A stretch of DNA of 64,000 nt from a virus (taxonomy: Duplodnaviria > Heunggongvirae > Uroviricota > Caudoviricetes). The DNA is taken from the IMG/VR virus record IMGVR_UViG_3300035701_000015, positions 12,009-76,008 of that record. One strand, given 5' to 3'. The notes beneath the pieces were generated by a model. It was not told the DNA's origin and searched no databases. It saw nothing but the letters and a program-made list of their open reading frames with translations. Position numbers and translations under genes: made by a program. Positions 3,953 to 48,860 of the stretch are shown one piece after another. How positions within the stretch are numbered: position 1 is the first letter of the stretch; each line of letters starts with the position of its first letter.

Positions 3953-4098
3953 GAAAATGTAATTGGACCGATTGTTTTAGAGAATCTGGTCATTGCGATA
4001 ATAATTTTAAGCATAAAGTATTTTATTATACTAAAAGGAACAAACACAGACGCAAATTATTGCTATGTGAAGAACATTTAAATACTCTTAGAAAATAG
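3949..4098 (+). CDS. small Cys/His-rich protein (49 aa)
   Basis: ATGA overlap with the upstream gene; CxxxxC...HC...CxxH spacing. Confidence 0.3.
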   Translation: MRKCNWTDCFRESGHCDNNFKHKVFYYTKRNKHRRKLLLCEEHLNTLRK

Positions 4099-7597: not shown

Positions 7598-7727
7598 GAA
7601 GCTGAACAGAAAGAGGTTATCGTACTAGGAACGAGAGGTCATTGGTTCGAATCCAATCCTCGGCAAATCATGCCGAGGTAGCCTAGTGGTTAGGGCGCTA
7701 AAACATCTTTTTCTAAAAACTTGCTTC
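7598..7727 (+). ncRNA. modular structured RNA (Y2) with permuted tRNA-like module
   Basis: Outer stem gaagc/gcttc, TGAA, inner stem agaaagagg/ctttttct. Apical module is T-arm attgg-ttcgaat-ccaat (7641-7657), acceptor hairpin cctcggc-aaatcat-gccgagg (7658-7678), then D-arm gcct-agtggtta-gggc (7681-7696). Confidence 0.4.
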
Positions 7728-7747
7728 TTAATTTTTGAGGTGATAAT

Positions 7748-8098
7748 ATGGGAAAGCTAAAGAGAGTAGAAGTTCGAGACATTTTAGAACAAGTAGTAGA
7801 CTTTGACAGTCTTACTCTAGAAGATGCTCGTAAGTTACTCGATAGTTTTTTAAGTAGATATGCTAGTATTTATCACAATATTTATTTTGAACAAAATTAT
7901 CAGCACGACATAAGCGATGAACTTCAGCTCATTGGCAACCGATTCGAGAACGACGAGGAATATGGAAGACGACTCGCTGATCAGAAGATGTTTCGAGACA
8001 ACAAGAAGAAAGAGAAAGAACAAAAGGAAGCTGAAGAATACAAAGAATATTTAAGACTCAGAGAAAAGTTTAATGGGTCGGTTAAGGGTAATTGGTGA
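7748..8098 (+). CDS. hypothetical protein
   Basis: The 3' end overlaps tRNA-Tyr by 24 nt. Confidence 0.5.
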   Translation: MGKLKRVEVRDILEQVVDFDSLTLEDARKLLDSFLSRYASIYHNIYFEQNYQHDISDELQLIGNRFENDEEYGRRLADQKMFRDNKKKEKEQKEAEEYKEYLRLREKFNGSVKGNW

Positions 8099-9137: not shown

Positions 9138-9211
9138 GGGTCAGTAACGCAATGGTTTAGCGTACCAGACTTTTAATCTGGGAGTTGGAGGTTCGAATCC
9201 TCTCTGACCCA
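9138..9211 (+). tRNA. tRNA-Lys (anticodon TTT)
   Basis: Acceptor gggtcag/ctgaccc, anticodon arm ccaga-ctTTTaa-tctgg, T-arm ggagg-ttcgaat-cctct. Confidence 0.6.
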
Positions 9212-9214
9212 AAA

Positions 9215-9346
9215 GAAAGACTGACCGTGAAGGGGTTACCGACTGATAATCGAGAGGTCGTGAGTTCAAATCTCACTCAGTCTGAAAAGACTGATAGCTC
9301 AGGCTGGTAGAGCACTAAAATATCCTTTTGCAATTTCTTGTCTTTC
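9215..9346 (+). ncRNA. modular structured RNA (Y3) with degenerate tRNA-Ile-like module and duplicated 5' half
   Basis: Outer stem gaaagac/gtctttc, inner stem aagggg/cctttt. Degenerate tRNA-like at 9218-9284 (acceptor agactga/tcagtct, loop ctGATaa, T-arm gtgag-ttcaaat-ctcac). GAAA-capped acceptor hairpin, then a second agactga-ta-gctc-aggctggta-gagc 5' half (9288-9313). Confidence 0.4.
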
Positions 9347-9359
9347 TTTTTAAAAAACT

Positions 9360-9719: not shown

Positions 9720-9730
9720 GATAAAACTAA

Positions 9731-9850
9731 CAGCTGAAGTGATGAGTTTATCGGAAACTAGTTGTCTAGGTTCGACTCCTGGCTCCCATTTTTGGGATGT
9801 AGTGTAATGGTAGCACACCAGTCAAAACAACTTATTACGTTTACTTGCTG
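9731..9850 (+). ncRNA. modular structured RNA (Y4) with degenerate permuted tRNA-like module
   Basis: Outer stem cagc/gctg with TGAAG. T-arm-like tagg-ttcgact-cctgg, T-rich-capped acceptor-like hairpin, D-arm gtgt-aatggta-gcac (9802-9816), 3' CTTGCTG. Confidence 0.3.
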
Positions 9851-9927
9851 TTATTTATGAGTGGGATTATCAAAAAGAGTGAAGAGATAAGGTAGAAAAA
9901 TATGCGGAAATCCATTTAATTGATGAA

Positions 9928-12845: not shown

Positions 12846-13292
12846 TTGATCGTTAGACAGTTCAGAGGTTCTTTTGAATTTCTTAGTAATTTTCAAGAGA
12901 TACGTCCTTACATGTACATCGACGGAAAATATTGGTCAACTGTAGAACATTATTTTCAAGCAATGAAGACGCTTGATGAAGAAGAGCAAGAAAAAATCAG
13001 ATTAGCTACGCATCCAGCAATTTCTAAAATATTAGGAAAGAAAGTTCATCTGAGAGAAGATTGGGACAAAGTAAAAGAAGAGATCATGCTCAAGGCTCTA
13101 AGAGTCAAATTCGAGAACATTGAACTAAGACAGAAGTTGCTAGATACGGATGATGATGTTCTCGAAGAGGGCAACACCTGGAATGATCGTTATTGGGGCA
13201 AAGATCTCAACACTGGGTTTGGCCACAACAGACTCGGAAATCTTTTGATGCAAGTCAGAACAGAAATAAAAGAAGATGAAAATAATAGCTGA
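12846..13292 (+). CDS. NADAR/YbiA-like domain protein (DUF1768)
   Basis: FLSNF...YWSTVEHYFQAMK...REDWDKVK...ALRVKF...WG.DLNTGFGHNRLGNLLMQVR. TTG start. Confidence 0.6.
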   Translation: MIVRQFRGSFEFLSNFQEIRPYMYIDGKYWSTVEHYFQAMKTLDEEEQEKIRLATHPAISKILGKKVHLREDWDKVKEEIMLKALRVKFENIELRQKLLDTDDDVLEEGNTWNDRYWGKDLNTGFGHNRLGNLLMQVRTEIKEDENNS

Positions 13293-25497: not shown

Positions 25498-25821
25498 ATG
25501 AAGTTTAGAAAAGCCACTAACGACGAAGCAACAGGCACTCACCAAACGGGTATATTGCACACAGACTATCATAAAATAGTTAGTGTATTTGGTGAGCCCG
25601 AAGAAAGTAATTCAGATAAAATTCAAGTGGAATGGATTTTAAAATTTGAAGATAGAACTATAGCTACTGTATATGATTATAGAGCAATAAGAATTCCTGA
25701 AAAAAATAAAGATTGGTACATCGGCGGAAAAAACAAAAAATCTGTATATTATGTACTTGCTCTTGTTTTAAAACATTATAGAGCTTTAATAAAAGATGTA
25801 TTTGAGGCTAATTTAAAGTAA
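25498..25821 (+). CDS. hypothetical protein
   Basis: ORF. Confidence 0.45.
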   Translation: MKFRKATNDEATGTHQTGILHTDYHKIVSVFGEPEESNSDKIQVEWILKFEDRTIATVYDYRAIRIPEKNKDWYIGGKNKKSVYYVLALVLKHYRALIKDVFEANLK

Positions 25822-26884
25822 ATTTCTCACCTTTGTAATTCACGAAATTATTGTCACCTAAATAATAATCTGGAGAGATAGATATTTTTCCACCCCCATG
25901 TGGCAAATCCACAATATATTGCGGAACAGCCAAACCAGAAGTAAATCCTCTCAATCCTTTTACGATGTTAACTCCATCTTCGACTGTAGTTCTAAAGTGC
26001 TTAGAACCTACAATGTTGTCGCAATGATAGATATAATAAGGTCGAACTCTAATCTTGAGTAGTTTCTGCATTAGTGATTTCATAGTCGCTACGTCGTCGT
26101 TAACGCCCTTTAGCAGCACTGTTTGGCTACCAAGCGGTATTCCAGCATCGGCTAATTTATTGCAAGCTTCTGTCGTCTCCTCAGTGATTTCATCGGGATG
26201 GGTGAAATGAATGTTCACATAAAGTGGATGATACTTTTTAAGCATAGCGACAAGCTCATCTGTTATTCTCATAGGTAGTACAACTGGAACTTTCGTCCCT
26301 ATTCTTATGACCTCTACATGCGGAATGCTTCTGATCTCTTTGATCAAGATCTCAAGCATCTCATCTGACATAGTAAGAGGATCACCACCAGAAATAATAA
26401 CGTCTCTTATTTCAGTATGTTCCCGAATATAATCTATTGACTTTTCCCATTCGTCTCTTTCTTCTCCACCAACTATTCTTGAGCGAGTACAGTAACGACA
26501 GTTAGCAGCACAGAAAGTTGTAGACAAGAATAAAACTCTATCAGGATAACGATGCACTATGCCACGAGTTGGGCTTTGTTTTTCTTCATCTAAAGGATCT
26601 TCGTCCTCATCGGGTGACTTTATTAATTCGTGAATTGTTGGCACCATAGTCTTTCTTATTGCTGAGCTCTTCTTAACGATTTCTGCAAAGTATGGTGTCA
26701 ATCTAAAAGGCAAATCTATTTGCTCGAAAGCTTTGACTTCATCATCTGTCAAGTCAATAATAGAGCGCAACTGTTCGAGAGTCGTGATTGAATTTTTGAT
26801 TTGCCATTTCCAGCTTTTACTTGGAGGCTTGTCTTCACACGGTGGGGGTTTATCGTCTTCGGGTTTACTAATGTTAGTGTCCAT
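25808..26884 (-). CDS. KamA-family radical SAM protein (lysine 2,3-aminomutase-like)
   Basis: CAANCRYCTRS (CxxxCxxC) cluster, GGDPL, and overall KamA/EpmB-like architecture. Confidence 0.7.
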   Translation of the reverse strand: MDTNISKPEDDKPPPCEDKPPSKSWKWQIKNSITTLEQLRSIIDLTDDEVKAFEQIDLPFRLTPYFAEIVKKSSAIRKTMVPTIHELIKSPDEDEDPLDEEKQSPTRGIVHRYPDRVLFLSTTFCAANCRYCTRSRIVGGEERDEWEKSIDYIREHTEIRDVIISGGDPLTMSDEMLEILIKEIRSIPHVEVIRIGTKVPVVLPMRITDELVAMLKKYHPLYVNIHFTHPDEITEETTEACNKLADAGIPLGSQTVLLKGVNDDVATMKSLMQKLLKIRVRPYYIYHCDNIVGSKHFRTTVEDGVNIVKGLRGFTSGLAVPQYIVDLPHGGGKISISPDYYLGDNNFVNYKGEKFTLN

Positions 26885-27255: not shown

Positions 27256-28197
27256 TTAACGAAACTCAGTTTTCTTTTGTTCTATTGAATAGGATGTTGG
27301 AAGGCCTGTAGTTTTTACATCTTCTGGAATTTGAAAATTCTTAAATGCATAATAATATTTAAGAGTTTCAGATAATTCGCCTTTACCATATAACGCTTCG
27401 GGTATAGCTCCTTTTCCCTCATCCCAATATTTATCGATCACTTCATATTCATTAGTAAACAAAGAAAGAAGAACCCAGTCGGGCCTATTATTGAAAGTTG
27501 CCATCAAATCATCTATTCTTGCCACCAAAAGTTTTATAGATTCTGTAGGTACGTTCAAAGTATCGGGACCTCTGTAATCTATTCTAAACGAAGCGTCGTT
27601 CCTGCATATTGGCAAATTAGAAATTCTTTCTCCCATTTTATGCATGAAAGCGGCTATTCCTTTTTTGTATGTTTTCTTATCGTTGTAATTCGGATTGAAA
27701 TTAGTAGCTACTTTCATATAAGCAACGGGGAGAAAGAAATTGATTGAGGGGGTCTTGAGTAAGCAATTCCAAAGCGCATCAAATGAAGTCTGAATTTGTT
27801 CGTCGTTCATCTTCTGCTCAAGTGGAACTCTATTTGTATAATATCTCACAATTTGAAAATACTGTTCTCTCAACCTTTCTTTTCTTTCATTTATTGGCAT
27901 TCGCTCCCAATTATTTGTTACCTCTATGTTAGATCGCGTTCGAATGATTTGCTCGGTATCTCTAACATATTGATGATACATCATAATCATGACGAAACTC
28001 ATAGCTATAACTACGAAAATGAAAACTGCAACTAGTCTTGTAAATGTGTGAATGATAGTTTTACTGGGAGCCATTAGCTTCTGGATGGGCTCAGCTAATC
28101 TTTCTAACAGTTTCATATCTTTGTCGCTGGGTTTTTCTGACTTGATGTACTTGGGCTCAGAATCTGCCCCTCGCATCTGCATATCTACACCGTTCAT
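27256..28197 (-). CDS. membrane-anchored hypothetical protein
   Basis: One TM helix (LVAVFIFVVIAMSFVMIMM). Co-oriented with the KamA-like gene. Confidence 0.5.
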   Translation of the reverse strand: MNGVDMQMRGADSEPKYIKSEKPSDKDMKLLERLAEPIQKLMAPSKTIIHTFTRLVAVFIFVVIAMSFVMIMMYHQYVRDTEQIIRTRSNIEVTNNWERMPINERKERLREQYFQIVRYYTNRVPLEQKMNDEQIQTSFDALWNCLLKTPSINFFLPVAYMKVATNFNPNYNDKKTYKKGIAAFMHKMGERISNLPICRNDASFRIDYRGPDTLNVPTESIKLLVARIDDLMATFNNRPDWVLLSLFTNEYEVIDKYWDEGKGAIPEALYGKGELSETLKYYYAFKNFQIPEDVKTTGLPTSYSIEQKKTEFR

Positions 28198-28369
28198 AAT
28201 TATCCTCCTGAATGTTTTATAGATTTATGCGCATAAATGATATAAAGATTTTTTCAAAAAATTTTGAATTTTCTATAAAATTCGCATAGTTATCCACAAA
28301 GATAAATAAGAATAAGTTCTGAAGCCGTTTAGAATTTTACACAACTACATACATAGATTAAAAAAGATT

Positions 28370-28444
28370 GAGCTGCTAGTAAGGGGTTACCGTTATGATT
28401 CAGCCGTAGGCTGAAAACCAACGCCCTTTGCTGATCACTTGCTC
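28370..28444 (+). ncRNA. structured stem-loop element, family member Y5
   Basis: Outer stem gagc/gctc, inner stem aagggg/cccttt, GGGGTTACCG identical to Y3, 3' CACTTGCTCTTCTT. A T-arm-like hairpin follows at 28464-28486. Confidence 0.4.
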
Positions 28445-29044
28445 TTCTTATTAATAGGAATAGACGGGAGTTTCGATTTCCGTTTATTATATCATCTAAT
28501 TCCTTTTTAAAGGAGGTGGATCTCTCAGTAAGATACACTATGAAAGGAAATGGGATAGAGTGATCTATCCAGCTTGACGTTAATGATGTTTAAGTCGAGC
28601 TGACTTAGGGTGATTACCGTAACTACAAATTGTTCGTACATTGCTAATGCAATGTATTGGTTTTTTCTACTGCGGTAGAAAAATAGCAAATCGGGCAGCG
28701 TCCGATTTACCAAAACGCTCGTCAAGTTCATCCTAAACTTTTTTGCTCGCAATTTTTTGTTGTTCTTTGACACATTCGAAATCGGTCGGTCCTATATCTA
28801 CTGATACATAAGTAACCGAAAGTAGGCCTTTCGGGATGAGACTGAAAGGCTGAACTAACCAAAGTAAATTGGGATGATAAAAGAATGAAAATTAATGAGA
28901 TATGTTAGAAGGCGAAAAAGTGACGGTAGACGAAAATATTATAGACTATTATGATGCTTAACTTATTAGTTAAGCAGCAGGACAGGGTTATCCTGACTGA
29001 GATTTATGATAAACAATTCTCTCCCTCTCAGTAAAAACTCTCTT

Positions 29045-29069
29045 GGTCGCAGACTGGTCGCAGACTGGT
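29045..29069 (+). repeat. tandem 11-bp repeat
   Basis: ggtcgcagact occurs 2.3 times in tandem. Confidence 0.6.
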
Positions 29070-29098
29070 TTCAGAAGTGTTGCAGTGGCTTTGGCTGT

Positions 29099-29163
29099 CG
29101 AGAGTAAAATCTGATTCTTCTCTTACTCTCGGCAGCTCTTTTAACTTTGAAAAAAGAGAGCTG
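29099..29163 (+). other. two adjacent long hairpins
   Basis: cgagagtaa...ttactctcg (9 bp) and cagctctttt...aaaagagagctg (10-12 bp). Confidence 0.5.
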
Positions 29164-29301
29164 AAGTGAAAGCGGTTACCGGTGAAAATTTTTGTCTAAT
29201 AAACAGAAACCAGCTGGATTCGATTGCCAGCAAACTAGAGCAATCTAGTAAAACTCGTTTTCCAATTACTTGCTCTTTATTATTGCATATATAAAACAAA
29301 T

Positions 29302-29361
29302 TAGCTGAATGTTGGTGGTTATCGCCTTGTAATCGAACACCCATCAACTAACAACTTGCTA
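29302..29361 (+). ncRNA. structured stem-loop element, family member Y6
   Basis: Outer stem tagc/gcta, TGAA, inner stem gttggtgg/ccatcaac, GGTGGTTATCG, 3' CAACTTGCTA. Confidence 0.4.
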
Positions 29362-29391
29362 ATCTTATTTTATCGCATACTTAAAAACGAT

Positions 29392-29480
29392 CAGCTGAAT
29401 GATTGGTGGTTATCGTTACCATTCACACGACGATCCCTGACATAGTTGGGGACGTAATCCCCATCGATCAACACTTGCTG
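29392..29480 (+). ncRNA. structured stem-loop element, family member Y7
   Basis: Outer stem cagc/gctg, TGAA, inner stem gattggtgg/ccatcgatc, apical hairpin gggga-cgtaa-tcccc, 3' CACTTGCTG. Confidence 0.4.
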
Positions 29481-29703
29481 ATTTTATATTCGTGCAACAG
29501 AAATAATTTCAGATAGTCCAGTTAGAATATTAAAGCTAATTTCTTAGAAAGAAAGGCCTTTGCTCGTATTTCGAGCTGAAAAAGAATTTAGTTTTCCGCT
29601 CAAATCTCAAGTTTTTTAATAGAATTTGATTTTAATCATTTAATTAGATTTCGTTGAACGAAACATACTAATTTGTCGCGCAGCGACTGAAGGAGGCAAC
29701 ATT

Positions 29704-31326
29704 ATGGCTCAGAAGAAATCACCGTATGGATTCACATCAACAAGAAACAAGCCGACTCCGCAGAGCAAGCCGATTCCAGGGAGAGAAGCAGAGATGAAAG
29801 AGAATCTCGCAGGAGGCTATGGATTCAACGCTTCTGATTGGACTGCACTGCGAAGATGGCTGCTCACCGGTAGCATGTTCGATGCATACTACCAGGGCAA
29901 AGAGCAGATGACCGAGGACAACGTGAAAGTCCTCAAAGCAGTGATGAATCAGGATGCTCCGAAGACGGCTCAGGAAATCCAAGATGCTTCAAAGAAGGGC
30001 GTTTCTGTTCACACTCCGATTTACGCTCTAAGCGTTCTCTCAACTGGGAACAAAGAAGCGAAAGCCGCTTTCCGAGAACTGTTTCCATTGGTCATTCGAA
30101 ATGGAAGTCATCTGTACGAGTTCCTTAATTATACTCGTGGCTTGAGGGGCTTCGGTTCACTCATCCACAAAGCAGTTAAGGACTGGTTTTACAGCAAAGA
30201 TGCAAAGGAGCTTGAGTATCAGTTCTTGAAATACCAGAGCAGGTACGACTGGAGCGGCCGAGATGTTCTGAGAACCATCAAGCCGATACCGAAAGACGAG
30301 AACGTAAAGGCAATCTTCAACTGGATTGCTGGTGGTTCTACGAAGAACCCGCTGCTCACTGAATGGCCAGAAGCGCTCCAGAGAATTCGGGCATACGAAT
30401 TCCTCAAGAGTGGAAAGGCTGCAGAGAGTGATGTCATCGACGCAATCAACAAGTATAAGATGACTTGGGAGATGATGCCGGGTAACTTGACTCAAACTCC
30501 GAAAACGTGGGAAGCTCTCTTTCACAACATGCCGGTAGGAGCAACCATCAGAAACCTCGGCAACTTGACTGACAAGGGTGTCTTCAAAGACCACAAAAAC
30601 TTGGAGATTCTCGAAGCGAGGTTCAGCAAGGAAAACTTGGCGAAAGCCTACATCCATCCGATTGTATTCGCTTCAGCAATGAAGATTTATCAAGCTGATG
30701 GAACTCTGGGAAAGAGCCAACTCCGATGGACTTCGGTTGCTCGAGTATCTGACGCCATGGAAGACGGAATCGAAAAGTGCTTCGATGTTCTTGAGCCGAC
30801 TGGCAAAGACTTCTTCTATGCACTCGACGTTTCTAGCTCAATGACAGGCGGAAACGTTGGAACAATGTGGCTGACCCCGATGGAAGTAGAGGGCGTAATG
30901 GCTCTTGCATCTGTACGATCAGAGAAGAACTATTTCGTTGGTGGGTTCAACACTAACTTCCAACCGATCAGCAATTTCACCAAGAAGATGAGCTACAAGA
31001 CTGCTCTGAACTTCTGGCACGGAGGCTTCGGCGGAACTGACGCTGACTCTGCCTACAGGTACGCAATCAGCAATCAGGTTCGAACGGATGTTTTCGTATT
31101 CATGACCGATGGCGAAAGTTGGGCTGGTGCTCGGCATCCAGCACAAGGTTTCAAAGCTTACAAGGGTAAGATTAACAAAAACGCGAAAGCGATCTATATT
31201 ACCCTTACGGCTACTGGAGACCACATTACTCTAGCTGACCCCACTGATCCTCAGTCTTATGACATCGCTGGTTTCTCGAGCGACACTCCGAAAATTATAA
31301 ATCTTATAGTTCGCGGAGATCTTTAA
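29704..31326 (+). CDS. rsr: Ro60-like TROVE-domain protein with C-terminal vWA domain (Rsr ortholog)
   Basis: 540 aa; helical N-terminal ~350 aa with a TROVE-like pattern; C-terminal vWA with MIDAS motif DVSSSM and TDGES. Confidence 0.65.
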   Translation: MAQKKSPYGFTSTRNKPTPQSKPIPGREAEMKENLAGGYGFNASDWTALRRWLLTGSMFDAYYQGKEQMTEDNVKVLKAVMNQDAPKTAQEIQDASKKGVSVHTPIYALSVLSTGNKEAKAAFRELFPLVIRNGSHLYEFLNYTRGLRGFGSLIHKAVKDWFYSKDAKELEYQFLKYQSRYDWSGRDVLRTIKPIPKDENVKAIFNWIAGGSTKNPLLTEWPEALQRIRAYEFLKSGKAAESDVIDAINKYKMTWEMMPGNLTQTPKTWEALFHNMPVGATIRNLGNLTDKGVFKDHKNLEILEARFSKENLAKAYIHPIVFASAMKIYQADGTLGKSQLRWTSVARVSDAMEDGIEKCFDVLEPTGKDFFYALDVSSSMTGGNVGTMWLTPMEVEGVMALASVRSEKNYFVGGFNTNFQPISNFTKKMSYKTALNFWHGGFGGTDADSAYRYAISNQVRTDVFVFMTDGESWAGARHPAQGFKAYKGKINKNAKAIYITLTATGDHITLADPTDPQSYDIAGFSSDTPKIINLIVRGDL

Positions 31327-31335
31327 TACAATCAA

Positions 31336-31365
31336 GGGCTAGATGAAAGTCTAGCCCTTTTGTTT
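31336..31365 (+). terminator. rho-independent terminator
   Basis: gggctagatgaaagtctagccc followed by TTTTGTTT. Confidence 0.65.
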
Positions 31366-39694: not shown

Positions 39695-42100
39695 ATGAGT
39701 TGGAAAAATTTGATAGGCTCTATTAAGGAAGAAGTTAATCAAGACTCTCCTATAATTAAAAAGAGCAAAAAACAAGGAATACCTTTATTCGAAAAATTAG
39801 CCAGAGAGCTAGTTGATGACAGGATAGATGAAATAGATATTAAAGGTGCTGTAAAGAAAGTTGGAGTAGTTATAAAAACTGGATGGCAAAAGCTGACGGG
39901 CAAAATTAAAGAAGTTGCTATGAGAGGTTTTAAATTCGGAGTTGCCGTTGGTAAGACAGTAGCGAATAAATTTGTATTATTCAACAAAGCTGGAGAAATA
40001 TTGACTCCTCCTGCAGACAATGCGCAAATAAAGCCTATAGCTTCTGGTAAGAAAACATTGACGCTTACTTATAAAAGTAAAGCTGGTCCAATGGATATTC
40101 ACATGGGCGATCTTCTCAAGATGGGCTTTGGTACTCAGATAGACAAAAACGGTATTGGCATCTTCTATGTTGTTGAGCCTAAAGTTGCTGGAGTACAAGA
40201 GGGAATAGACTATAAGGCATCTGAAATTCTTTTAGAAGATAGAGAAAAAGAAAAAGAAGAACTTGCCGCTATGTCTGAAATAGATAAATTAGTATTTGGC
40301 TCATTTTCTGGTGAAGGAGCTCAAGCTTTAAAATCTTCTTCAGAAATGCCAACTAAAGCTGCACCAGTAGCAGTTAATTATGATGACTTTCAAAAAGAAT
40401 TAAACGATCTTCTGAAGAGAGTAAAAGAGGGAATAGTTCTTAAAAATAGTAAAATAAAAACTCTTGCAATTTATGCACCTACTGGGTGGGGAAAATCAGA
40501 AATCATAGAGCATACGGCAAAAGCTGCTGGATACCATTATTTTCCAATAGAGCTTCAGAAAGTTGATATAAACATTATTCAGGGCTTTCCATATCTAGAA
40601 GATGTTGAAGCCGCTGATGACGCAACGAAAGAAGATAGATTACGAAGAGCGATCAAAATAGTAAAGATTGCTCCATCTGAACACTTACCACCATCTGAGC
40701 ATCCGGGAAACTGGTTACTATTCTTTGACGAGTTCAATAGAGCAGACACCGAAAAGATGTCGGCAGTTATGAACTTATTACTAACTGGTGAGCTTGGTGG
40801 TGCTGCTAATTTAGTTCGAGATAAAAAGACTGGTGAAAAGAAACTTGATAGATATAGATTACCAGAAAAAACGGTAGTACTTCTGGCAATGAATACTGGA
40901 ATGCAGAAAAACATTTCAGATGCAATGAACGCAGTAAAAGACTTAGACATTGCAACTCTTGAAAGAGTTCACAGAGTACTCCAAGGAAAATATCATGGAC
41001 CAAGCTGGTTCAAGAATTTTGCAGCAAAATCTTTTATAGCGGAAACGAAAGCGGGTCACAAAGTACCCATACTATCAAGAATTCCTCCAATTATATTACA
41101 CTATATCAATCAAGAGATGAGAACTAAAACGGGCATTGATCCTGAGAAACCTTTCTTAATTCCAGTAAAAGTAGCATACGATGAGAAAGGCGAATCTCTT
41201 GGAGGCGGCGGTGAAAGAACGACTTCCCCAAGAGCTTGGACAATTATAGCAGACACTATGATTGAACAAGGTATCGATCAATGGAACTCATTAAGTGATG
41301 AGTCTAAAAAGAAATATATGAAAGACGCTGAAAAAATTAAGAAACAAATAGAAGAGAAGGGTATTACTGATAAAGAAGGAAATAAAGTAAAACTTCCAGA
41401 AAAAGTTGAAGATTATCTATTTGCCGCTTGGGTCAATGATGCTAGAAATCAAGTGAAGCTTCTGGCAAATCAATCACCAGAGCTCGGTGACGAGGGAATG
41501 GAACTTATAGGTAAAATGATAAGATCTTTCATGAGGAAAGGGAGAGAAGGTATCAGCGATGAAGATGTTCTATTAAACTACAAAGCTATTAGAGAGCAAG
41601 TCAAGAACAATTTTACAAATCTTGGGTTTGGAACTAAAGCAAATTTACTTGCCAGATTATTTATGGCTCTATCTAAATTCAAAAATGAAAAGCAAGTTAC
41701 AGATTATATGGAAGACAAGAGTATTCCTCTTCTTTCTAAGCAAGGATTAATTGAACAGTTATTTCAAACTATCAAGGCTCTATACAAAGACTTAGATTTT
41801 GCTCCAGATGAGTTTGCTTCATTCACACACTTAGTGGAAGAAGCCGCTAAGAAGGGCGACAATGAGCTACTTAGATCATTGCACCAGAAGATGGCTGGCA
41901 AATGGGAAGTCTATTTAGACAACATAAGAAAGAAGTTGCAGACTAAGAGTCAAGTAGAAAAAGAGCTTGAAAAAATAGCAGGCGGTAAAGGTAAGGCTGG
42001 CGAGAAAGGTGAAGAAGGTGAAGAAGGCGAGAAAGGTGAAGAAGGTGAAGAAAAGAAAAACGAAGATATTAGAAACTTTTTGAGAGGCTTGAAACTCTAA
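39695..42100 (+). CDS. MoxR-like AAA+ ATPase (AAA_5) with long C-terminal extension
   Basis: Walker A APTGWGKSE, Walker B/sensor LLFFDEFNRAD, LLLTGELGG; C-terminal GE[KE]GEEGEE repeats. Start trimmed to the ATG after GAGGAG. Confidence 0.6.
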   Translation: MSWKNLIGSIKEEVNQDSPIIKKSKKQGIPLFEKLARELVDDRIDEIDIKGAVKKVGVVIKTGWQKLTGKIKEVAMRGFKFGVAVGKTVANKFVLFNKAGEILTPPADNAQIKPIASGKKTLTLTYKSKAGPMDIHMGDLLKMGFGTQIDKNGIGIFYVVEPKVAGVQEGIDYKASEILLEDREKEKEELAAMSEIDKLVFGSFSGEGAQALKSSSEMPTKAAPVAVNYDDFQKELNDLLKRVKEGIVLKNSKIKTLAIYAPTGWGKSEIIEHTAKAAGYHYFPIELQKVDINIIQGFPYLEDVEAADDATKEDRLRRAIKIVKIAPSEHLPPSEHPGNWLLFFDEFNRADTEKMSAVMNLLLTGELGGAANLVRDKKTGEKKLDRYRLPEKTVVLLAMNTGMQKNISDAMNAVKDLDIATLERVHRVLQGKYHGPSWFKNFAAKSFIAETKAGHKVPILSRIPPIILHYINQEMRTKTGIDPEKPFLIPVKVAYDEKGESLGGGGERTTSPRAWTIIADTMIEQGIDQWNSLSDESKKKYMKDAEKIKKQIEEKGITDKEGNKVKLPEKVEDYLFAAWVNDARNQVKLLANQSPELGDEGMELIGKMIRSFMRKGREGISDEDVLLNYKAIREQVKNNFTNLGFGTKANLLARLFMALSKFKNEKQVTDYMEDKSIPLLSKQGLIEQLFQTIKALYKDLDFAPDEFASFTHLVEEAAKKGDNELLRSLHQKMAGKWEVYLDNIRKKLQTKSQVEKELEKIAGGKGKAGEKGEEGEEGEKGEEGEEKKNEDIRNFLRGLKL

Positions 42101-42930
42101 TGAAAAATTTGTTCCAAGTAATATTAGAAGCACAACAAAGCGATCAACCTACACAAGCTGAGTTAGAGCAATATAGAGAGAAGTTGCAAGCTAGTAAGAC
42201 TAGTATACCAAGATCGATTGCAGCAATTAAACCGCATCTTTTTAATACAGGAGAATATGAACTCTATGAGTTCATAGAAAACTGTGAGTTTTGGAAAGTT
42301 CAAAATAAAAATGGTCCAGGCTGGCATGCAACTGCTGGCGTTAGAGTGGGATCGAATAAAATAGAATTTTATTATGATGAAGAGTTTCTAGATAAATTGG
42401 CAAAGAAGCCGGGTCAATTAATATTCTTGATAGGACATGAAGCTTCTCATATTCTGAGATTCCACATAGACAGATCAGTCGCTGCAAATCAAGAAGCAAG
42501 CTTAGCGAATGTAGCACAAGATATGATTATTAATGACGATATATTATTGACTGACAAAGTAGCTGGTTGGAAGCCAGAAATGATAACTAAATCTACTGTT
42601 ATGGAATTAGCTAAGGGTGAGAAAGACGGAGCTTTTGCTCATTCAATTCCAGATAAATTCAGACAAGATTTTAAAGAAGTTGGACGAAAAGCTTATTATT
42701 CAGAAAATATGTACAACTGGCTAAATGCTAATCCAAAAGAAAAAGAAAAAGTGACGGGTCCTGGAGCTCCACAAGAAGTAGATTATTTTGAAAAAGGTTC
42801 ATTAGTAAAAGTAAATAGCGGCCCGCATAAGGGCGAATATAGAAGAATAACTGAAGTCAATAAAGATGGAACTTACGAAACTGAGCCAGTTGATATACAA
42901 GCTGAAATAGAAAAGGTTAAGGGCAAATGA
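42100..42930 (+). CDS. putative zinc metallopeptidase domain protein (HExxH)
   Basis: GHEASHILRFH. Confidence 0.5.
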   Translation: MKNLFQVILEAQQSDQPTQAELEQYREKLQASKTSIPRSIAAIKPHLFNTGEYELYEFIENCEFWKVQNKNGPGWHATAGVRVGSNKIEFYYDEEFLDKLAKKPGQLIFLIGHEASHILRFHIDRSVAANQEASLANVAQDMIINDDILLTDKVAGWKPEMITKSTVMELAKGEKDGAFAHSIPDKFRQDFKEVGRKAYYSENMYNWLNANPKEKEKVTGPGAPQEVDYFEKGSLVKVNSGPHKGEYRRITEVNKDGTYETEPVDIQAEIEKVKGK

Positions 42931-44207
42931 ATATAAAATCTTTATTAGAAACTCTTGAAAATAGAGTTTTATTAGAACAAAAGGAAACGTTCAAACAAGG
43001 CGAACTTACTCCAGTAATCATCAATCCTCCAACTGGTACCCCGTCGCCACTACCACCACAGCAAGGTGGAAAACAAATAGACGTAGAAGTAATAGATACG
43101 GGTAAGCCACCTCCTAGTAAAGGAGCAGGGGCAAGTAAGCCTGGTGAAACTAGCGGTAAAGAAACTAAGAAAACAGATAAGCCTGGTGAAGGCGAAAAAA
43201 AAGCCGCTGCTTCACCAACAATAGATTCTCACGAAATTTTTAATAAATCAGATCCATCTGAAGCTAAAGAGATGGCAGAAAAGATCCTTGAGAAAGCTGA
43301 GGCAGAAAGAAAAGAAAGAGGTGAAGATTTAGAGAAATCTGCTGGAGAAGGTGCTGGCAATTTTATGGATAAGCTCAGAGATATTCACAAACCAAGAATA
43401 AATTGGTCAGTTGAGTTAAAGAGAAAGCTCACGGAATTCAAATCTAGAACATCTACAGCTATAAATAGATACTCTAAAAAGAAAGCAGAGAAATACAAAG
43501 AAGGCGAAGGAGTAGTAAAATCAAAAGCCTATCATCAATGGTTGAGAGATCCAAGGTCTCATGGTGGTAGCAAAATACTCTTCAAAGGACCTTATGTAAA
43601 AGCTCCGATAGGTGAAGTCATATTGATAGTTGCTCTAGATACTTCTGGATCTATTCCAGAAAGTACGATTGGTAAAGTATTTGCTGAAATGGATAAAATA
43701 GCAACGAATTTCAAAAGAGGACTTACCCATGGCGGAGTAAGCATGGAAGGCAAAGTCTACTTCATGACTTGGGACTCAGCAGTAGCTTCTGTTGATGAAT
43801 ATAAGCCTGGAGAATGGAGAAAATATAAAGAGGGCACGAAGAAAATCAAAGGTGGCGGAGGAACAGACCCAAGTAGTATATTCGATTATTTAAAGAAGCA
43901 TACTTTATTCGATAGGGAGAAACCAACTGCGGCTTTGCTTAATATACTGAAAGAACCAGCTCCAACGGGAATGAGTAAGCACGATATAGTAATTCCCGTT
44001 AAAGGCGGTTCTGAGAGTCCTTCAGCTGTTATGTCTCCTTTCTTGTTAATAGCTACAGACGGTTTCTTCTTTGGGAAAGTAAATGATGCAGATTTAGGTT
44101 TGTTATACAAAGATAATGAAAAGAACATACTCTATTTAGTTATAGATGGGCAGACACAAGATTGTTATCCTAAAAACGTAATAGTGTATGAATCAGTAAG
44201 AGCATAA
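42927..44207 (+). CDS. vWA domain protein
   Basis: MIDAS VALDTSGSI; acidic/low-complexity N-terminal region. Confidence 0.55.
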   Translation: MNIKSLLETLENRVLLEQKETFKQGELTPVIINPPTGTPSPLPPQQGGKQIDVEVIDTGKPPPSKGAGASKPGETSGKETKKTDKPGEGEKKAAASPTIDSHEIFNKSDPSEAKEMAEKILEKAEAERKERGEDLEKSAGEGAGNFMDKLRDIHKPRINWSVELKRKLTEFKSRTSTAINRYSKKKAEKYKEGEGVVKSKAYHQWLRDPRSHGGSKILFKGPYVKAPIGEVILIVALDTSGSIPESTIGKVFAEMDKIATNFKRGLTHGGVSMEGKVYFMTWDSAVASVDEYKPGEWRKYKEGTKKIKGGGGTDPSSIFDYLKKHTLFDREKPTAALLNILKEPAPTGMSKHDIVIPVKGGSESPSAVMSPFLLIATDGFFFGKVNDADLGLLYKDNEKNILYLVIDGQTQDCYPKNVIVYESVRA

Positions 44208-44225
44208 ATCATGGAGGTTAATGTG

Positions 44226-44660
44226 ATGGAAATCAGAAAATTCCTCGAAGAAATGGAAAACAAAGGTAGTCTTCTTTTCGAAGAGGGAAAAGAGGGAGAT
44301 AAAATAAATCCCCAGATGAAAAAGGCTTTACAGTCTGCTGGCGTCAAAGCTCAGTGGATTTATCAGCCCGAAGGATATGACTTAGTCGTAATGGAGCACG
44401 ATAAAGACGGCGAGAAGAAAGATAGTTGGTCTATGGCATTCTTCACAGAAGCTGAACTCGGTGGTGAAGAAGGTGAGCAGATTTTCAAGGAAAACTTGAA
44501 TGAAGCTGAAGTCGGTATGAAGATGGTCGATCAAGTCAAGGGAAATTTTCTCGATATCGTTCAGCTAGCAATTGAAGTTGCTTCTAATAAGAAATACAAG
44601 AAAGGTTTCTCTTCTCAGCTAGTAAAGCAGGCAACGTCTGCATCTAAGTCGAAGAAATAA
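44226..44660 (+). CDS. hypothetical protein
   Basis: Start set after GGAGG. Confidence 0.45.
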   Translation: MEIRKFLEEMENKGSLLFEEGKEGDKINPQMKKALQSAGVKAQWIYQPEGYDLVVMEHDKDGEKKDSWSMAFFTEAELGGEEGEQIFKENLNEAEVGMKMVDQVKGNFLDIVQLAIEVASNKKYKKGFSSQLVKQATSASKSKK

Positions 44661-44682
44661 TTGATCTTTTAAATATTTTGAA

Positions 44683-44934
44683 GTGGAGGTGGTGGCGGTG
44701 AAAGAAACAGAATATCAAGAACAGCTGTGGGACATTGAACTGCAAGAGAGGAGATTCAATTTAAGCTATCAGAAAATAGCAAGGAAACACGAGAAGATTG
44801 ACATGATGCTGAAAGTCATTTCTACTCTGTCTCAAGGTTTTGTTGCTGACAAAAAACTTAAAGATGATGCTCTCGATAAAGCAGCTAAAGTGTTGAATAA
44901 AGAATTAGAAACCTACAAATCTGACATTGCTTAA
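44683..44934 (+). CDS. hypothetical protein
   Basis: GTG start. Confidence 0.4.
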   Translation: MEVVAVKETEYQEQLWDIELQERRFNLSYQKIARKHEKIDMMLKVISTLSQGFVADKKLKDDALDKAAKVLNKELETYKSDIA

Positions 44935-44939
44935 GCAAA

Positions 44940-44969
44940 GGCTCCTCTTTACTGAGAGGAGCCTTTTTG
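44940..44969 (+). terminator. rho-independent terminator
   Basis: ggctcctct-ttactg-agaggagcc followed by TTTTTG. Confidence 0.7.
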
Positions 44970-44980
44970 TTGGAGATTAG

Positions 44981-45439
44981 ATGTTAAAATTAGTTAGTCC
45001 ACAAAAAGCTATAAAATTGTGCAAAGATGTGACTGATATAGAAACATTAATAAAATTGGGTGGCGATCTACTTTTTAACAATATATTAGAAATATGTCAT
45101 AAATCTCAGGGAGTAGGCTTAGCTGCTCCCCAAGTTGGTATTTATTATAAATTCTTTATAGCTTATCTGCAAGAGTATAATAATTTCGGGGTTTATGTCA
45201 ATCCTAAGTATAGACCCCTCTCTGACCAAACAGTTGAGTCAATCGAGAGTTGTTTGACACATGGTAAAGATAAACCATATAAAATTAAAAGGTATCATAA
45301 AATTTTAGCTGAATGGCAAGATATTGGACTTGTAAAAAAGATACAAGAGTTGAATGGAATGTCAGCGATAATTTTCCAGCATGAAACAGATCATATTAAT
45401 AGTATAACTATAGCTTCTATCGGAGAACTAAATGTATAA
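44981..45439 (+). CDS. def: peptide deformylase
   Basis: GVGLAAPQVG, ESCLT and QHETDHI motifs. Confidence 0.65.
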   Translation: MLKLVSPQKAIKLCKDVTDIETLIKLGGDLLFNNILEICHKSQGVGLAAPQVGIYYKFFIAYLQEYNNFGVYVNPKYRPLSDQTVESIESCLTHGKDKPYKIKRYHKILAEWQDIGLVKKIQELNGMSAIIFQHETDHINSITIASIGELNV

Positions 45440-45965
45440 TATAACAGATAAATTAATTCACCTAAATCAATATACTAGATCAGGTAAACCATTGTCTAGA
45501 GTTTGTAGTCTAGTAGTTCATTGGACAGGTTTAGCGAGTGGAAGCAATAATGGACTATTCAATTGGTTTGATAAAGTTTCTGTTGAGACACAAAGGTACG
45601 GTTCAGCACATTATGGAATCGACAAGACAAGCATTTACAGATTTATTCCCGATAATGAAATAGCTTACCATGTTGGAGCTTCTAAATATACTGAATTTGC
45701 CAAAAAGAAATTTTGCGATCAGTATCCCAATCAATATTCTCTGGGAGTCGAATTAAATCCTGAATTCGCTAATGGTGAATTTCACGAAGAAGTATTGAAC
45801 AGAGCAGTTTGGTTGTTTGCTGAATTGTGCAAAATTTACAACTTGAATCCCATGTGTGAAATTATTAGACACTATGATGTGACGGGAAAAGATTGTCCAA
45901 AGTTGTTTATTGATCACACTGAGAAATTCTTGCTCTTCAAAGAACAAGTCAAGGAAGCAATGTGA
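45432..45965 (+). CDS. N-acetylmuramoyl-L-alanine amidase (amidase_2, PGRP/T7-lysozyme-like) endolysin
   Basis: VVHWTG...AHYGID...YHVGAS...GVEL...IIRHYDVTGKDCP. Confidence 0.65.
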   Translation: MYNITDKLIHLNQYTRSGKPLSRVCSLVVHWTGLASGSNNGLFNWFDKVSVETQRYGSAHYGIDKTSIYRFIPDNEIAYHVGASKYTEFAKKKFCDQYPNQYSLGVELNPEFANGEFHEEVLNRAVWLFAELCKIYNLNPMCEIIRHYDVTGKDCPKLFIDHTEKFLLFKEQVKEAM

Positions 45966-46249
45966 TGTTTGGTTTTCATGAGCTTTTCACTCCAGACGGT
46001 CTAGCATTTTTGATTTTTGAATTCGATAAAGATAAATATGATGTTTGGGATGTAGGAGATGGGTCTTTCGATATTAAAGTCAAAAAAGTATTATTTTGTA
46101 ATAACAAAATTTGTCCAAAAACTGTAAACCTATCACAAGGGGAACTCAGTGAACTTACACATAACGACCTACATAAGTTGTCGCATATTATTATAGACAG
46201 GATTTTTCTAACTACTAGCGTATATCAAAGACTTAGGTCGCATAAATAA
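45962..46249 (+). CDS. hypothetical protein
   Basis: ORF. Confidence 0.4.
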   Translation: MMFGFHELFTPDGLAFLIFEFDKDKYDVWDVGDGSFDIKVKKVLFCNNKICPKTVNLSQGELSELTHNDLHKLSHIIIDRIFLTTSVYQRLRSHK

Positions 46250-46342
46250 CATATCTTGTGGTTAAGCTTTCGCCGTTAAAAACATACAAATAGTTTCGAT
46301 GCTTCTATATAATGTAAGTAAAATCTTTCGTAGGAGCGCAAC

Positions 46343-47479
46343 ATGACTGTTAAGGAAATCAAGCAGGCTCTTGATTTAATTCTTCTGAAGTCGCCACAAG
46401 TTATCACTCCTTATATTCATGGAAAGCCTGGAGTAGGGAAGTCAGCGATTACTCATCAAATCGCTGAAACCAGAGATATCGGTTTCATCGATCTCAGACT
46501 GTCTCAACTTGAAAGTTCAGACATTCGGGGTATTCCAACTCCCGATCATAAGAACGGAAGTTCTCGGTGGCTTCCGCCAGAAACTATCCCGTTCGAAGTT
46601 TTCGAGAATTTGCCTATACCCAGCGACCCAAAAGGACGAAAGTTTTCTAACGGCGGGATCCTTTTCCTCGACGAAATCAACCGAGCACGTTTCGATGTTC
46701 TGCAATCAGTCTTCGAGTTGGTTTATGACCGCAGAGTTGGATTGCACAAGATTCTCGATAATTGGTTCATCGTATGTGCAGGAAACCTCGGTGAAGCAGA
46801 CAAGACAGAAGTTACCGAATTCACTGATGCAGCTCTCAATAATAGGTTCATCCATTTCTATGTAGAAGACCAGGGCCTCTTTGACTGTTGGGTCGAATGG
46901 GCAGAGAAAGAAGGCAATGTTCATTTCGACGTTGTAAATTTTATCAAGACGAAACCTTCAGCTCTTTACACCGAATGCAAAGACGACGATGTAATTTATT
47001 GCACTCCTCGAACTTGGGATAAATTTTCTCAGATACTCAAACAGAATACCGAAAAAGATCCTTCAGATATTACGAAGATAATCGGTAAGAGCATGCTCGG
47101 ACCTACAGCAGTGGGCTTCTTAGACTATCTGAGACAAAAATCAAAGATCTCACCTGAAGATGTTGTGCTTCGGTACCAGAATGCTGAAATTAAAAAGAAA
47201 GTCAAGAACCTTTCTCGAGATGAGAAGTATTCTTTATCGAACGAGATCACCAATTATATTTCTCAACACAGAAGTATGGACGACAAGAAGATCGGCAACA
47301 TTCATGAGTTTATTAGCAAAGAACTCGAAAAAGATCACATGATCGCCATTTACAAAGTTCTCGTAAATATTCCTATAAAGTATAATAACAAAGAACAAGA
47401 ATTCATGGCAGTTTATCTCGATCTTTATCCCGAGTTCAACGCCAAAATCGCTTCTATTTTGAGAGAGAGCCATGCCTAA
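46343..47479 (+). CDS. MoxR-like AAA+ ATPase (AAA_5), second copy
   Basis: HGKPGVGKSA, ILFLDEINRA. Confidence 0.6.
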   Translation: MTVKEIKQALDLILLKSPQVITPYIHGKPGVGKSAITHQIAETRDIGFIDLRLSQLESSDIRGIPTPDHKNGSSRWLPPETIPFEVFENLPIPSDPKGRKFSNGGILFLDEINRARFDVLQSVFELVYDRRVGLHKILDNWFIVCAGNLGEADKTEVTEFTDAALNNRFIHFYVEDQGLFDCWVEWAEKEGNVHFDVVNFIKTKPSALYTECKDDDVIYCTPRTWDKFSQILKQNTEKDPSDITKIIGKSMLGPTAVGFLDYLRQKSKISPEDVVLRYQNAEIKKKVKNLSRDEKYSLSNEITNYISQHRSMDDKKIGNIHEFISKELEKDHMIAIYKVLVNIPIKYNNKEQEFMAVYLDLYPEFNAKIASILRESHA

Positions 47480-48860
47480 AAACGTAATGCCAGAAAAGAT
47501 TTCGAATATTTGTGTAAGATGGCAAGACGGTTCTACTTGCCCATTCTTCGCCGAGTTCCTTCTGAGATTTAGGTATCGCGAAGATAAAGCTTGTTCAACA
47601 GTTGGTATAGCTTTTAACAAACATAGTAAATTAGAGCTTGTATACAACTCTGAATTCCTTGATAAGTTGACTCCGACAGAGGTTGAAGCCGTCTGTGTAC
47701 ACGAAATAATGCATGTGCTCCATAAGTTCGACGATAGATTAGGAACTAGATTTTTCGATCTCTTCAACGTAGCTCAAGATGCTTGTGTCAATAAAATCGT
47801 AAACGAAACCATAATAGGTAATAGACAACTTCAGATTCCAAAAGGTGGAGTAGACTTTGCGGAGATACAGAAGATGGGTTATAAAGGAGAAGCAATTTCT
47901 GAACCCGTCTATGATTTCTTAGAAAAGAAAGCTGAGAAGATTTATATTGTTTCAACTGGTGCAGATGGCCAACAAGGCGAGGGAGATAACACTTGTCCAA
48001 ATTGCGGAGGAAGTGGTAAAGCAGATAACGATAGCGATGGTAATGGTCAAGGCGAAGGAGATGGAAAATCTGGTTCGAAAAAAGGTAAGTCTGGGCAAGG
48101 AGATGGGAAAGAACAAAAAGAATGCCCAGTGTGCGGCGGATCTGGAAAACTACACGGTAAGAAAATACTTCGCACAACTGATGACCACACTCAAAGAAAA
48201 GAGAAGCTTACCGAAATTGAGAAAGCCATTATTGAAGATGTAATCAACAATGCTCGAACCCGTTCATGGGGCACAATGAGCGGTAATATGCAGAGCACGA
48301 TCACAGAACTAATTAAAACTAAAAGAATTCCGTGGCAACAAAAATTAGCTATGATCATGTCGAGATATGTGCATCAGTCAGGTAACGTTTATGAAAATAC
48401 ATGGTCTCGCAGAAACCGAAGAAGCTTACCACTTCCCGGAATACGAAAGATGTCGAAGAAGATAGTAGTTACTGTAGACACTTCTGGAAGTGTTTCAGAC
48501 TATGATATTAAGATGTTCTTCGGTCAGATTGAAAAGATTGTAAAAGACTTTTCTCAAATGACTTTGATACAATGGGACACAATTGTTCAAGGTGTAGAAC
48601 TTTATAAAAAGGGCGCTTGGAAGAAAATCAAAGTAAAGGGTCGTGGAGGCACTGATCCCCAAAAGTTGTATGATCTTCTCAACAGAGATTACTCTGACGT
48701 TTCAGCTGTAGTGAATTTCACAGATTCGTTTTTTGATTGGGGGTTCAAGTATTACGGCATCAATACAATTTGGGCCGTTATCAACAACCCAAATTTCAAA
48801 GCTCCTTTCGGTCAAACTATTATTATAGACAAACCAGAAAGAAGCGACCGGAGAGTATAA
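47472..48860 (+). CDS. HExxH metallopeptidase + zinc ribbons + vWA fusion protein
   Basis: VHEIMHVLH; CPNCGGSGK and CPVCGGSGK; MIDAS VTVDTSGSV. Confidence 0.55.
   Translation: MPKNVMPEKISNICVRWQDGSTCPFFAEFLLRFRYREDKACSTVGIAFNKHSKLELVYNSEFLDKLTPTEVEAVCVHEIMHVLHKFDDRLGTRFFDLFNVAQDACVNKIVNETIIGNRQLQIPKGGVDFAEIQKMGYKGEAISEPVYDFLEKKAEKIYIVSTGADGQQGEGDNTCPNCGGSGKADNDSDGNGQGEGDGKSGSKKGKSGQGDGKEQKECPVCGGSGKLHGKKILRTTDDHTQRKEKLTEIEKAIIEDVINNARTRSWGTMSGNMQSTITELIKTKRIPWQQKLAMIMSRYVHQSGNVYENTWSRRNRRSLPLPGIRKMSKKIVVTVDTSGSVSDYDIKMFFGQIEKIVKDFSQMTLIQWDTIVQGVELYKKGAWKKIKVKGRGGTDPQKLYDLLNRDYSDVSAVVNFTDSFFDWGFKYYGINTIWAVINNPNFKAPFGQTIIIDKPERSDRRV

Follow-up and report, generated by a model that had tools for sequence, protein, structure and literature searches.

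Ro60 and the Y RNAs are conserved from bacteria to humans, Ro60 being a major autoantigen, and the role of the variable part of Y RNAs is understood in a few cases only. To our knowledge, the genomes described elsewhere each have a small Y RNA repertoire, from one to a few RNAs. In 254 bacteria and 22 phages, a YrlA-type RNA is encoded on the strand of Ro60 and no more than 4 kb from it (PMC4201824). In YrlA, a conserved YUAY element opens the variable loop, and the parts follow the order V, T, acceptor-like stem and D (PMC4201824); Chen et al. (2014; PMC4201824) proposed that GNCGAAN0-1G is the Rsr site and pointed to its likeness to the metazoan GGUCCGA. In Deinococcus radiodurans, a Y RNA tethers Rsr to PNPase, as summarised by Chen et al. 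(2014; PMC4201824). The association of Ro60 with Y RNAs is already established in phages, including mycobacteriophages and phiLo (PMC4201824; PMC12135203; jumbo-phage survey PMC7824862), and the Ro60 of Thermus phage phiLo binds two upstream Y-like RNAs and assembles with the host PNPase (PMC12135203; PDB 9KOP, 9L5Y). The present study concerns a stretch of 64,000 nucleotides from a Caudoviricetes record (IMGVR_UViG_3300035701_000015, positions 12,009 to 76,008), hereafter the window, in which a Ro60 gene at 29704-31326 is preceded by an array of structured RNAs on the same strand. In our judgement, the window probably encodes a phage ribonucleoprotein system of Ro60 and Y RNAs in which the Y RNA set is expanded.

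The plus-strand open reading frame (ORF) at 29704-31326 encodes 540 amino acids (aa), with the Shine-Dalgarno sequence AAGGAGG 7 nt before its start. It matched the Pfam profiles TROVE (PF05731; E = 4e-20, 72.9 bits against a cut-off of 23) and vWA_Ro60 (PF25045; E = 7e-31, aa 370-533), and aligned over nearly its full length with Xenopus Ro60 (1yvp; E = 7e-56, aa 32-532 against 16-530), human RO60 (E = 3e-54) and D. radiodurans Rsr (2nvo; E = 3e-51). [quoted passage not shown] Judged by these profile and structure-sequence alignments, the ORF is a full-length Ro60/Rsr orthologue, comprising the TROVE HEAT-repeat ring region and a Ro60-type vWA domain, and the TROVE-vWA reading of the initial annotation, which was made from the letters alone, agrees with both the profiles and the solved Ro60 structures. 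Homology to three solved Ro60/Rsr structures predicts that the protein folds into a closed ring around a central cavity, with a Y-RNA binding surface on the outside. By their annotated products, Ro60 genes are common in phages: 356 GenBank phage records, mostly of Mycobacterium and Streptomyces phages, encode a "Ro-like RNA binding protein" about 30% identical to this ORF. A DNA-level search of the Ro60 locus against GenBank phages gave no match, so that these records include no close annotated relative, and the window, with a G+C content of about 37%, therefore comes from an uncultivated phage.

The region upstream of Ro60 (28198-29703) contains no plus-strand ORF longer than 42 aa. Five copies of one RNA family lie there within 1.35 kb of the gene, and five further copies occur in a tRNA array 20-28 kb from Ro60, so that the census for the 64-kb window stands at ten, all on the plus strand. 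The 5' pattern of the family, AGCTG-N4-12-GNTWAYCG, was derived by reading the stem-loops alongside a relative; it occurs ten times in the window, always on the plus strand, against 0.12 expected, and none of 100 shuffles reached this count. The copy at 9211, with GACUG instead of GCUG, came from a looser pattern. One of the ten pattern matches, at 6432, was dropped as lying inside an ORF and lacking a 3' partner, and an ACTTGCT match at 25755, likewise inside an ORF and without a partner, was rejected.

All copies share the same order of parts: a lower stem formed from both ends (4-11 bp), an upper stem (8-12 bp), the element UUAYCG and a variable distal module. Folding of every window copy gives a lower stem, an internal loop and an upper stem, with z values from -2.0 to -3.95. 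In the terminal stem, the 5' motif AGC-U-GAA is paired with the 3' motif ACUUGCU and its U is bulged; read directly from the sequence, 5'-AGC-U-GA pairs with 3'-UCG--UU when the U bulges out. Over 33 copies, C, U and the last G of the GCUG core never vary, its first G is kept in 32, and GAA follows in most, while UUG(C) is invariant on the 3' strand, usually inside ACUUGCU. The distal module is highly variable in size and shape, and four kinds occur: a complete tRNA mimic in permuted order, a mimic of the T arm only, a set of three hairpins, and one hairpin by itself.

Eight related metagenomic loci (L001-L008) were found through the Ro60 protein, at 67-88% identity; L002 and L003 are duplicates of L001, and upstream sequence is missing from L004. 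Covariation was assessed on 33 core constructs drawn from the window and the five remaining loci. Paired cells amounted to 88.4%, against 66.1% in shuffles, two-sided changes were present in 12 of 14 pairs (111 cells), and the covariation score was 0.651 against 0.227 for shuffled sequences; none of 500 shuffles reached 0.651, and all slid registers stayed at or below 0.32. The lower helix was paired in 100% of the 33 copies, with up to five pair types per position and four of its five pairs changed on both sides, and its register was not a matter of choice, because it is anchored by invariant motifs on both sides. A 3' partner with at least 13 paired positions accompanied 32 of the 39 plus-strand motif matches in the window and its relatives, compared with 1.8% of random anchors; on the minus strand, a single match out of seven had any 3' partner (score 10). 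Both stems of the RNA family covary strongly and form a shared architecture. A core covariance model (R1), built from the 33 constructs with the distal module removed, recovered only short copies (46.9, 40.6 and 25 bits) and was set aside for the census; since it missed the copies with long distal modules, the census was based on the 5' motif and the stem-partner test with its controls. A scan of IMG/VR for AGCTGAA-N5-9-GGTTAYCG returned at least 120 loci with single matches, none of them clustered or convincing among the matches listed; these are chance matches, and the scan is therefore uninformative on the spread of the family.

Upstream of Ro60, the initial annotation had recognised three members of the stem-loop family, all of which are real (RNAs A, B and C), and had overlooked two others (RNAs E and D). 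RNA A (28370-28444, 75 nt; fold z = -3.84), identified by the 5' pattern and a 3' partner, combines a 4-bp lower stem, the GCUG motif, an 11-bp upper stem and a single distal hairpin, and has a counterpart at 1394 in L005 with the identical 5' motif GCUGCUUGUAAGGGGUUACCG. In RNA E (28596-28749, 154 nt; z = -3.83), whose 3' motif is UUUUUUGCUCG, the lower and upper stems enclose three distal hairpins, and counterparts by position and sequence occur in L001 (2131-2273) and L005 (1639-1791). The distal module of RNA D (29155-29278, 124 nt; z = -2.80) combines a V-like hairpin, one resembling a T arm (GCUGG-AUUCGAUUG-CCAGC) and one closed by a GCAAU loop, and lacks a D arm; the consensus fold of this RNA with L001 3257-3371 and L006 290-405 comprises 33 pairs, 11 of them compensatory. 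RNA B (29300-29363, 64 nt; z = -2.0) represents the minimal form and is the top match of R1 (46.9 bits, E = 2e-8). RNA C (29389-29483, 95 nt; z = -3.35), found like RNA B by the 5' pattern and a 3' partner, shows a compensatory U-A to C-G change relative to B in the lower stem, read directly from the sequence. In lacking a complete tRNA mimic and any Rfam match, the Ro60-proximal copies resemble YrlB-type partners.

Two of the array copies are short: the one at 1373-1442 (70 nt; z = -3.95) starts 2 nt after tRNA-Gly and ends 5 nt before tRNA-Pro, and the one at 1526-1594 (69 nt; R1 40.6 bits; z = -3.11) starts 3 nt after tRNA-Pro. The other three are YrlA-type and have a tRNA-like module in permuted order (T arm, then a closed acceptor-like stem, then the D arm), thus found in three of the ten window copies: 7598-7727 (130 nt, with an 8-bp acceptor-like stem, starting 3 nt after tRNA-Ala; Rfam, fold and consensus fold), 9211-9350 (about 135 nt, with the 5' motif GACUGA and abutting tRNA-Lys; Rfam, and a minimum-free-energy fold with z = -3.12) and 9728-9853 (126 nt; 5' pattern, fold and consensus fold). 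The 9211 copy folds unaided into V, T, acceptor-like and D arms in its minimum-free-energy structure. The module is also present in one copy each of the Ro60-upstream arrays of L005, L007 and L008, and the consensus of the six tRNA-like copies contains the T, acceptor-like and D arms, with 21 of 31 pairs compensatory. In four of the five array copies, 0-3 nt separate the start from a preceding tRNA 3' end, and in one the next tRNA follows after 5 nt; this arrangement suggests co-transcription with the tRNAs and release by tRNA-end processing.

The Rfam YrlA model (RF02553) matched 9217-9347 with the best score (42.9 bits, E = 1e-7) and 7610-7733 with 29.8 bits (E = 8e-4), both below the gathering score of 69, and its alignments of these array copies put the T arm, the closed acceptor-like stem and the D arm exactly as in YrlA. 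At the Ro locus of mycobacteriophage Tonenili, the single RF02553 match scored 31.4 bits, so that sub-threshold scores are normal for phage Y RNAs; no match was obtained with Rfam YrlA in Streptomyces phage Riptide or Sinorhizobium phage Phosso. The permuted tRNA-like copies that had been reported elsewhere in the window at the outset thus belong to the same RNA family, with the YrlA arrangement of arms and, in two of three, sub-threshold Rfam YrlA matches. In the cultivated actinophages Riptide (Streptomyces) and Tonenili (Mycobacterium), the Ro-like gene is likewise located within a tRNA array or next to one; neither record carries a Y RNA annotation, and the Rfam YrlA match of Tonenili is partial and upstream of Ro.

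Wherever upstream sequence is present, the relatives with Ro60 67-79% identical carry three to eight copies upstream of Ro60 and on its strand: eight in L005, six in L001, five each in L007 and L008, and three in L006. Copy order is partly kept, as L005 begins with clear counterparts of the 28370 and 28596 elements and the 29155 type recurs in L001 and L006. The Ro60-upstream arrays are conserved in these relatives, all of which were recovered through their Ro60 gene; relatives of the tRNA array were sought through the ORF at 7748-8098 and none was found. Searches with Rfam YrlA of L001 and L005-L008, and then of L007 alone, gave no match, though tRNA-like copies are visible there, and the model is too distant for these copies. 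A 193-aa ORF, missing from the window, lies inside the Y-RNA array of L001 (2675-3256; also in L003); with CxxC and HNH-like motifs recognised by eye, it may be a homing endonuclease insertion.

The Ro60 messenger RNA has its own version of the motif. In the window, its leader (29675-29696, plus strand) contains a hairpin (GUCGC-GCA-GCGAC) followed directly by UGAAGGAGG, in which GAC-U-GAAGG, overlapping the Shine-Dalgarno sequence, repeats the 5' motif seen in the Y-like RNAs. The sequence CTGAAGGAGG occurs once only in the window. The arrangement is kept in all six genomes compared, with compensatory changes in the stem (L001 at about 3960-3990, L005 at about 2930-2960, and L006, L007 and L008 immediately ahead of the Ro60 start, besides the window), and autoregulation of Ro60 through the Y-like motif in its leader would be possible.

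Under the Ro60-Y RNA reading, the Ro60 ring would most likely bind each RNA at the conserved base of the closing stem, with a docking site in which 5'-NAGC-U-GAA is paired with 3'-ACUUGCUN and a bulged pyrimidine is followed by G-U and A-U pairs. The variable distal module would serve as an adaptor or gate, either tethering Ro60 to host PNPase or to tRNA-handling enzymes, or controlling access to the ring cavity, by analogy with D. radiodurans, Salmonella and phiLo. The five Ro60-proximal RNAs would probably be cut from transcripts running into the Ro60 gene, and the five array copies would probably be freed by tRNA-end processing, given that four of the five start within 3 nt of a tRNA. From sequence and by analogy, we infer Ro60 binding, RNA processing and partner recruitment, as well as a role during infection in which structured RNA and tRNA would be surveyed or repaired.

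Several observations weigh against this reading. Five of the ten copies sit among tRNAs some 20 kb away from Ro60, and a complete tRNA-like module is found in none of the five Ro60-proximal copies, RNA D having a T-arm-like hairpin only. The phage motif, GCUGAA, is neither GNCGAA nor GGUCCGA. No copy reaches the RF02553 gathering score of 69 bits (best 42.9), the five Ro60-proximal copies are without any Rfam match (28150-29750, E up to 10), and the tRNA-like copy of L007 gives no match to Rfam YrlA. The elements used for covariation were selected partly for pairing, a bias which the random-anchor control bounds without removing. The Pfam scan of 24 window ORFs, which detected a CCA-adding enzyme, gave neither an RtcB nor a PNPase gene, both named in the initial annotation as possible partners. 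The proposal of an Rsr/Y-RNA system in a tRNA-rich phage, in which Ro60 would bind the elements, nonetheless gains support from the TROVE/vWA identity of the protein, the Y-RNA anatomy of the elements and the same-strand arrays in relatives.

The position of the array copies, four of which follow a tRNA 3' end so closely while one nearly reaches the next tRNA, would also be expected if the repeats were punctuation for RNA processing or termination, acting as guides or spacers for RNase P, Z, E or III and unrelated to Ro60. U makes up 46% of the 12 nt that come after the elements, compared with 28% in the background, and the distal modules vary widely, as though only the stems counted. A plain terminator or spacer, however, has no need of the invariant single-stranded motifs UG(A)A, UUAYCG and ACUU, nor of the complete YrlA-type permuted tRNA mimic present in three copies. 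Moreover, the densest cluster lies directly upstream of Ro60 and on its strand in every relative, and no tRNA was found among the Ro60-upstream copies in the window, L001, L005 and L007. We regard punctuation as an unlikely explanation in place of the Ro60-Y RNA reading, and a processing role could coexist with a role as Ro60 ligand. It is still more improbable that the elements are decayed or rearranged tRNA genes, either pseudogenes or permuted, which spread by duplication and have no function. The genome does contain 32 tRNAs, three copies have T and D arms, and the tRNA model itself weakly matches 9218-9284 (30.4 bits); yet the seven of ten copies without a tRNA-like module still keep the closing stems and motifs, and both stems are maintained by compensatory changes across genomes with Ro60 67-79% identical, indicating selection. 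In the tRNA-like copies, the loop-closed acceptor stem would bar aminoacylation unless cleaved.

A further possibility is that the whole 1.5-kb region is a single cis-regulatory leader of the Ro60 mRNA and not a series of separate trans-acting RNAs. That the same RNA family recurs about 20 kb away among tRNAs is difficult to reconcile with this, as are the differences in copy number and order between relatives, the insertion of a 193-aa ORF in the array of one relative and the terminator-like hairpins inside the region. Set against these are the nearness of the elements to Ro60 and their common strand, the conserved leader hairpin with a Y-like motif overlapping the Shine-Dalgarno sequence, and the lack of a strong sigma-70-type promoter between elements; we give the single-leader explanation very little credence. 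All three explanations fit less well than the Ro60-Y RNA reading because of the invariant single-stranded motifs, the compensatory stems and the clustering with Ro60 in every relative, together with the distant copies.

A more elaborate form of the Ro60-Y RNA reading, which we put forward tentatively and consider rather doubtful, is a multi-adaptor system in which one Ro60 ring would use at least ten Y RNAs with different distal modules to reach different host or phage partners or substrates. Several of these RNAs would originate as fusions of a tRNA and a Y RNA that tRNA processing sets free, and by binding the Y motif in its leader Ro60 would hold down its own translation. If true, no Y RNA repertoire outside animals would be larger, and the system would show in nature how Y RNAs emerge from the tRNA genes of an array. 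Some ten paralogous Y RNAs sharing one putative Ro60-docking base and carrying at least four kinds of distal module constitute a ready comparative set, which bears on which module recruits which partner and on why phages carrying tRNAs also carry Ro60. The motif variant explains the failure of standard YrlA models and supplies a pattern for finding such RNAs in metagenomes, and the tRNA-fused copies and the Y-like motif of the leader suggest routes of biogenesis and autoregulation.

Other plus-strand elements accompany the five copies in the upstream region. Downstream of RNA A, folding gives a 13-bp hairpin with a UUCG loop (28459-28488), which in L005 has a counterpart at the same position with changed bases and preserved pairing. 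This is the hairpin that had been described as T-arm-like at 28464-28486, a shape it does not have; a better T-arm-like hairpin sits inside the 29155-29278 element. The 11-bp tandem repeat, the long hairpin and the overlapping hairpins noted at the outset are present at 29044-29065, 29094-29136 and 28816-28852, respectively. The long hairpin, with 14-nt arms that are 93% complementary and a following UCUUUU, is terminator-like by its fold and separates 28750-29140 from RNA D. The tandem repeat and the long and alternative hairpins of 28750-29140 are only modestly better than shuffles (z -1.7 to -2.0), and this middle stretch, which aligns with L001 and L005 in patches, fits neither the RNA family nor any Rfam family. 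It includes at 28920-28940 the sequence GGUAGACGAAAAU, containing the canonical bacterial GNCGAA motif, and L001 and L005 preserve this block together with one upstream of it (UCUAUAUCU...AAGUARCYG). The middle stretch may contain a further, different small RNA ending at the 29094-29136 hairpin. At 29543-29585, CCUUUGCUCG-UAUUU-CGAGCUGAAAAAG corresponds to the apparent 3' end motif of one copy joined to the 5' motif of another, without a body, and 29543-29564 shares 73% identity with a portion of the 28370 element; the segment is probably a remnant of recombination between copies. Directly 3' of the Ro60 stop codon, a terminator-like hairpin with a T-run occupies 31334-31359 on the plus strand (11 pairs, 5 of them G-C; tail TTGTTTG).

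Among the 32 tRNA genes of the window, one has a CUA anticodon (3231-3303; labelled tRNA-Pyl by ARAGORN, with 60.8 bits for the Rfam tRNA model). The presence of such an amber suppressor in a phage hints that TAG may be recoded in some genes. A CCA-adding tRNA nucleotidyltransferase with PolyA_pol head, RNA-binding, HD and tRNA_NucTran2_2 domains is encoded at 61139-62452, and is relevant here because the YrlA of Mycobacterium smegmatis has been reported to receive CCA after cleavage. Within the tRNA array, Macro- and NADAR-domain proteins are encoded at 1609-2034 and 12846-13292; since ADP-ribose is removed by members of either family, they may counter host defences that act by ADP-ribosylation. 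At the end of the array, on the minus strand, 25808-26884 encodes a radical-SAM protein with a lysine-2,3-aminomutase C-terminal domain. Further along the window, a cluster at 42100-48860 comprises a MoxR-like AAA_5 ATPase (46343-47479) and three DUF2201 metallopeptidase-like/vWA-like proteins. The DNA polymerase III alpha subunit (DnaE) is split and out of order (52756-55005 and 57221-58648), the PHP domain and first polymerase part, with C-terminal intein/HINT signatures, being encoded downstream of the ORF with the remaining polymerase, finger and HHH domains.

Compared with the YrlA/YrlB RNAs and Rsr, the phage RNAs similarly lie on the same strand as, and upstream of, a Ro60 orthologue, and their ends form a closing stem. 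As in YrlA, a short purine-rich 5' motif is followed by the YUAY element (UUAY in the phage) that starts the variable region, and some copies bear a permuted tRNA mimic in the order V, T arm, closed acceptor-like stem and D arm; ACUUG on the 3' strand matches the 3' consensus of RF02553, and the shorter partners without the full tRNA module that stand beside the tRNA-like copies are comparable to YrlB. Unlike YrlA, the phage RNAs have the motif AGC-U-GAA(N)G and not GNCGAAN0-1G, a difference of one nucleotide, and the tRNA-like copies of this genome are located in the tRNA array about 20 kb from Ro60 and do not adjoin it. The copy number also departs from that of YrlA/YrlB, with ten copies in 64 kb and three to eight in the arrays of relatives, against one to three per species (PMC4201824) and the single match in Tonenili.

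The phiLo system, with Yrl1 and Yrl2, shares with this locus a phage Ro60, Y-like RNAs directly upstream and a stem-bulge-stem build. In phiLo, RNA binding and assembly with PNPase have been demonstrated and are the source of the mechanism inferred for the present phage, which is known from its sequence. The two Ro60 proteins are only distantly similar (E = 1e-6, partial alignment), and phiLo has two RNAs with a CGAA motif, whereas this phage has at least ten with a CUGAA motif and several distal modules. No earlier description was found of the copy number, the AGC-U-GAA variant, the tRNA-fused copies or the range of distal modules reported here.

The bulge was also compared with human and Xenopus Y RNA sequences, of which the GGUCCGA motif is the part given in PMC4201824. 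In the phage RNAs the helix is AGC/GCU and not GUC/GAC, the bulged base is U and not C, and the distal modules are unrelated to those of metazoans. The phage RNAs nevertheless share with the metazoan Y RNA, as seen in the Xenopus structure of Stein et al. (2005; cited in PMC4201824), a single bulged pyrimidine followed by G-U and A-U pairs; set side by side, the metazoan 5'-GGUC-C-GA over 3'-UUGACC and the phage 5'-NAGC-U-GA over 3'-UUGCUN have identical spacing, so that in this respect the phage motif is closer to the metazoan one than the bacterial GNCGAA is.

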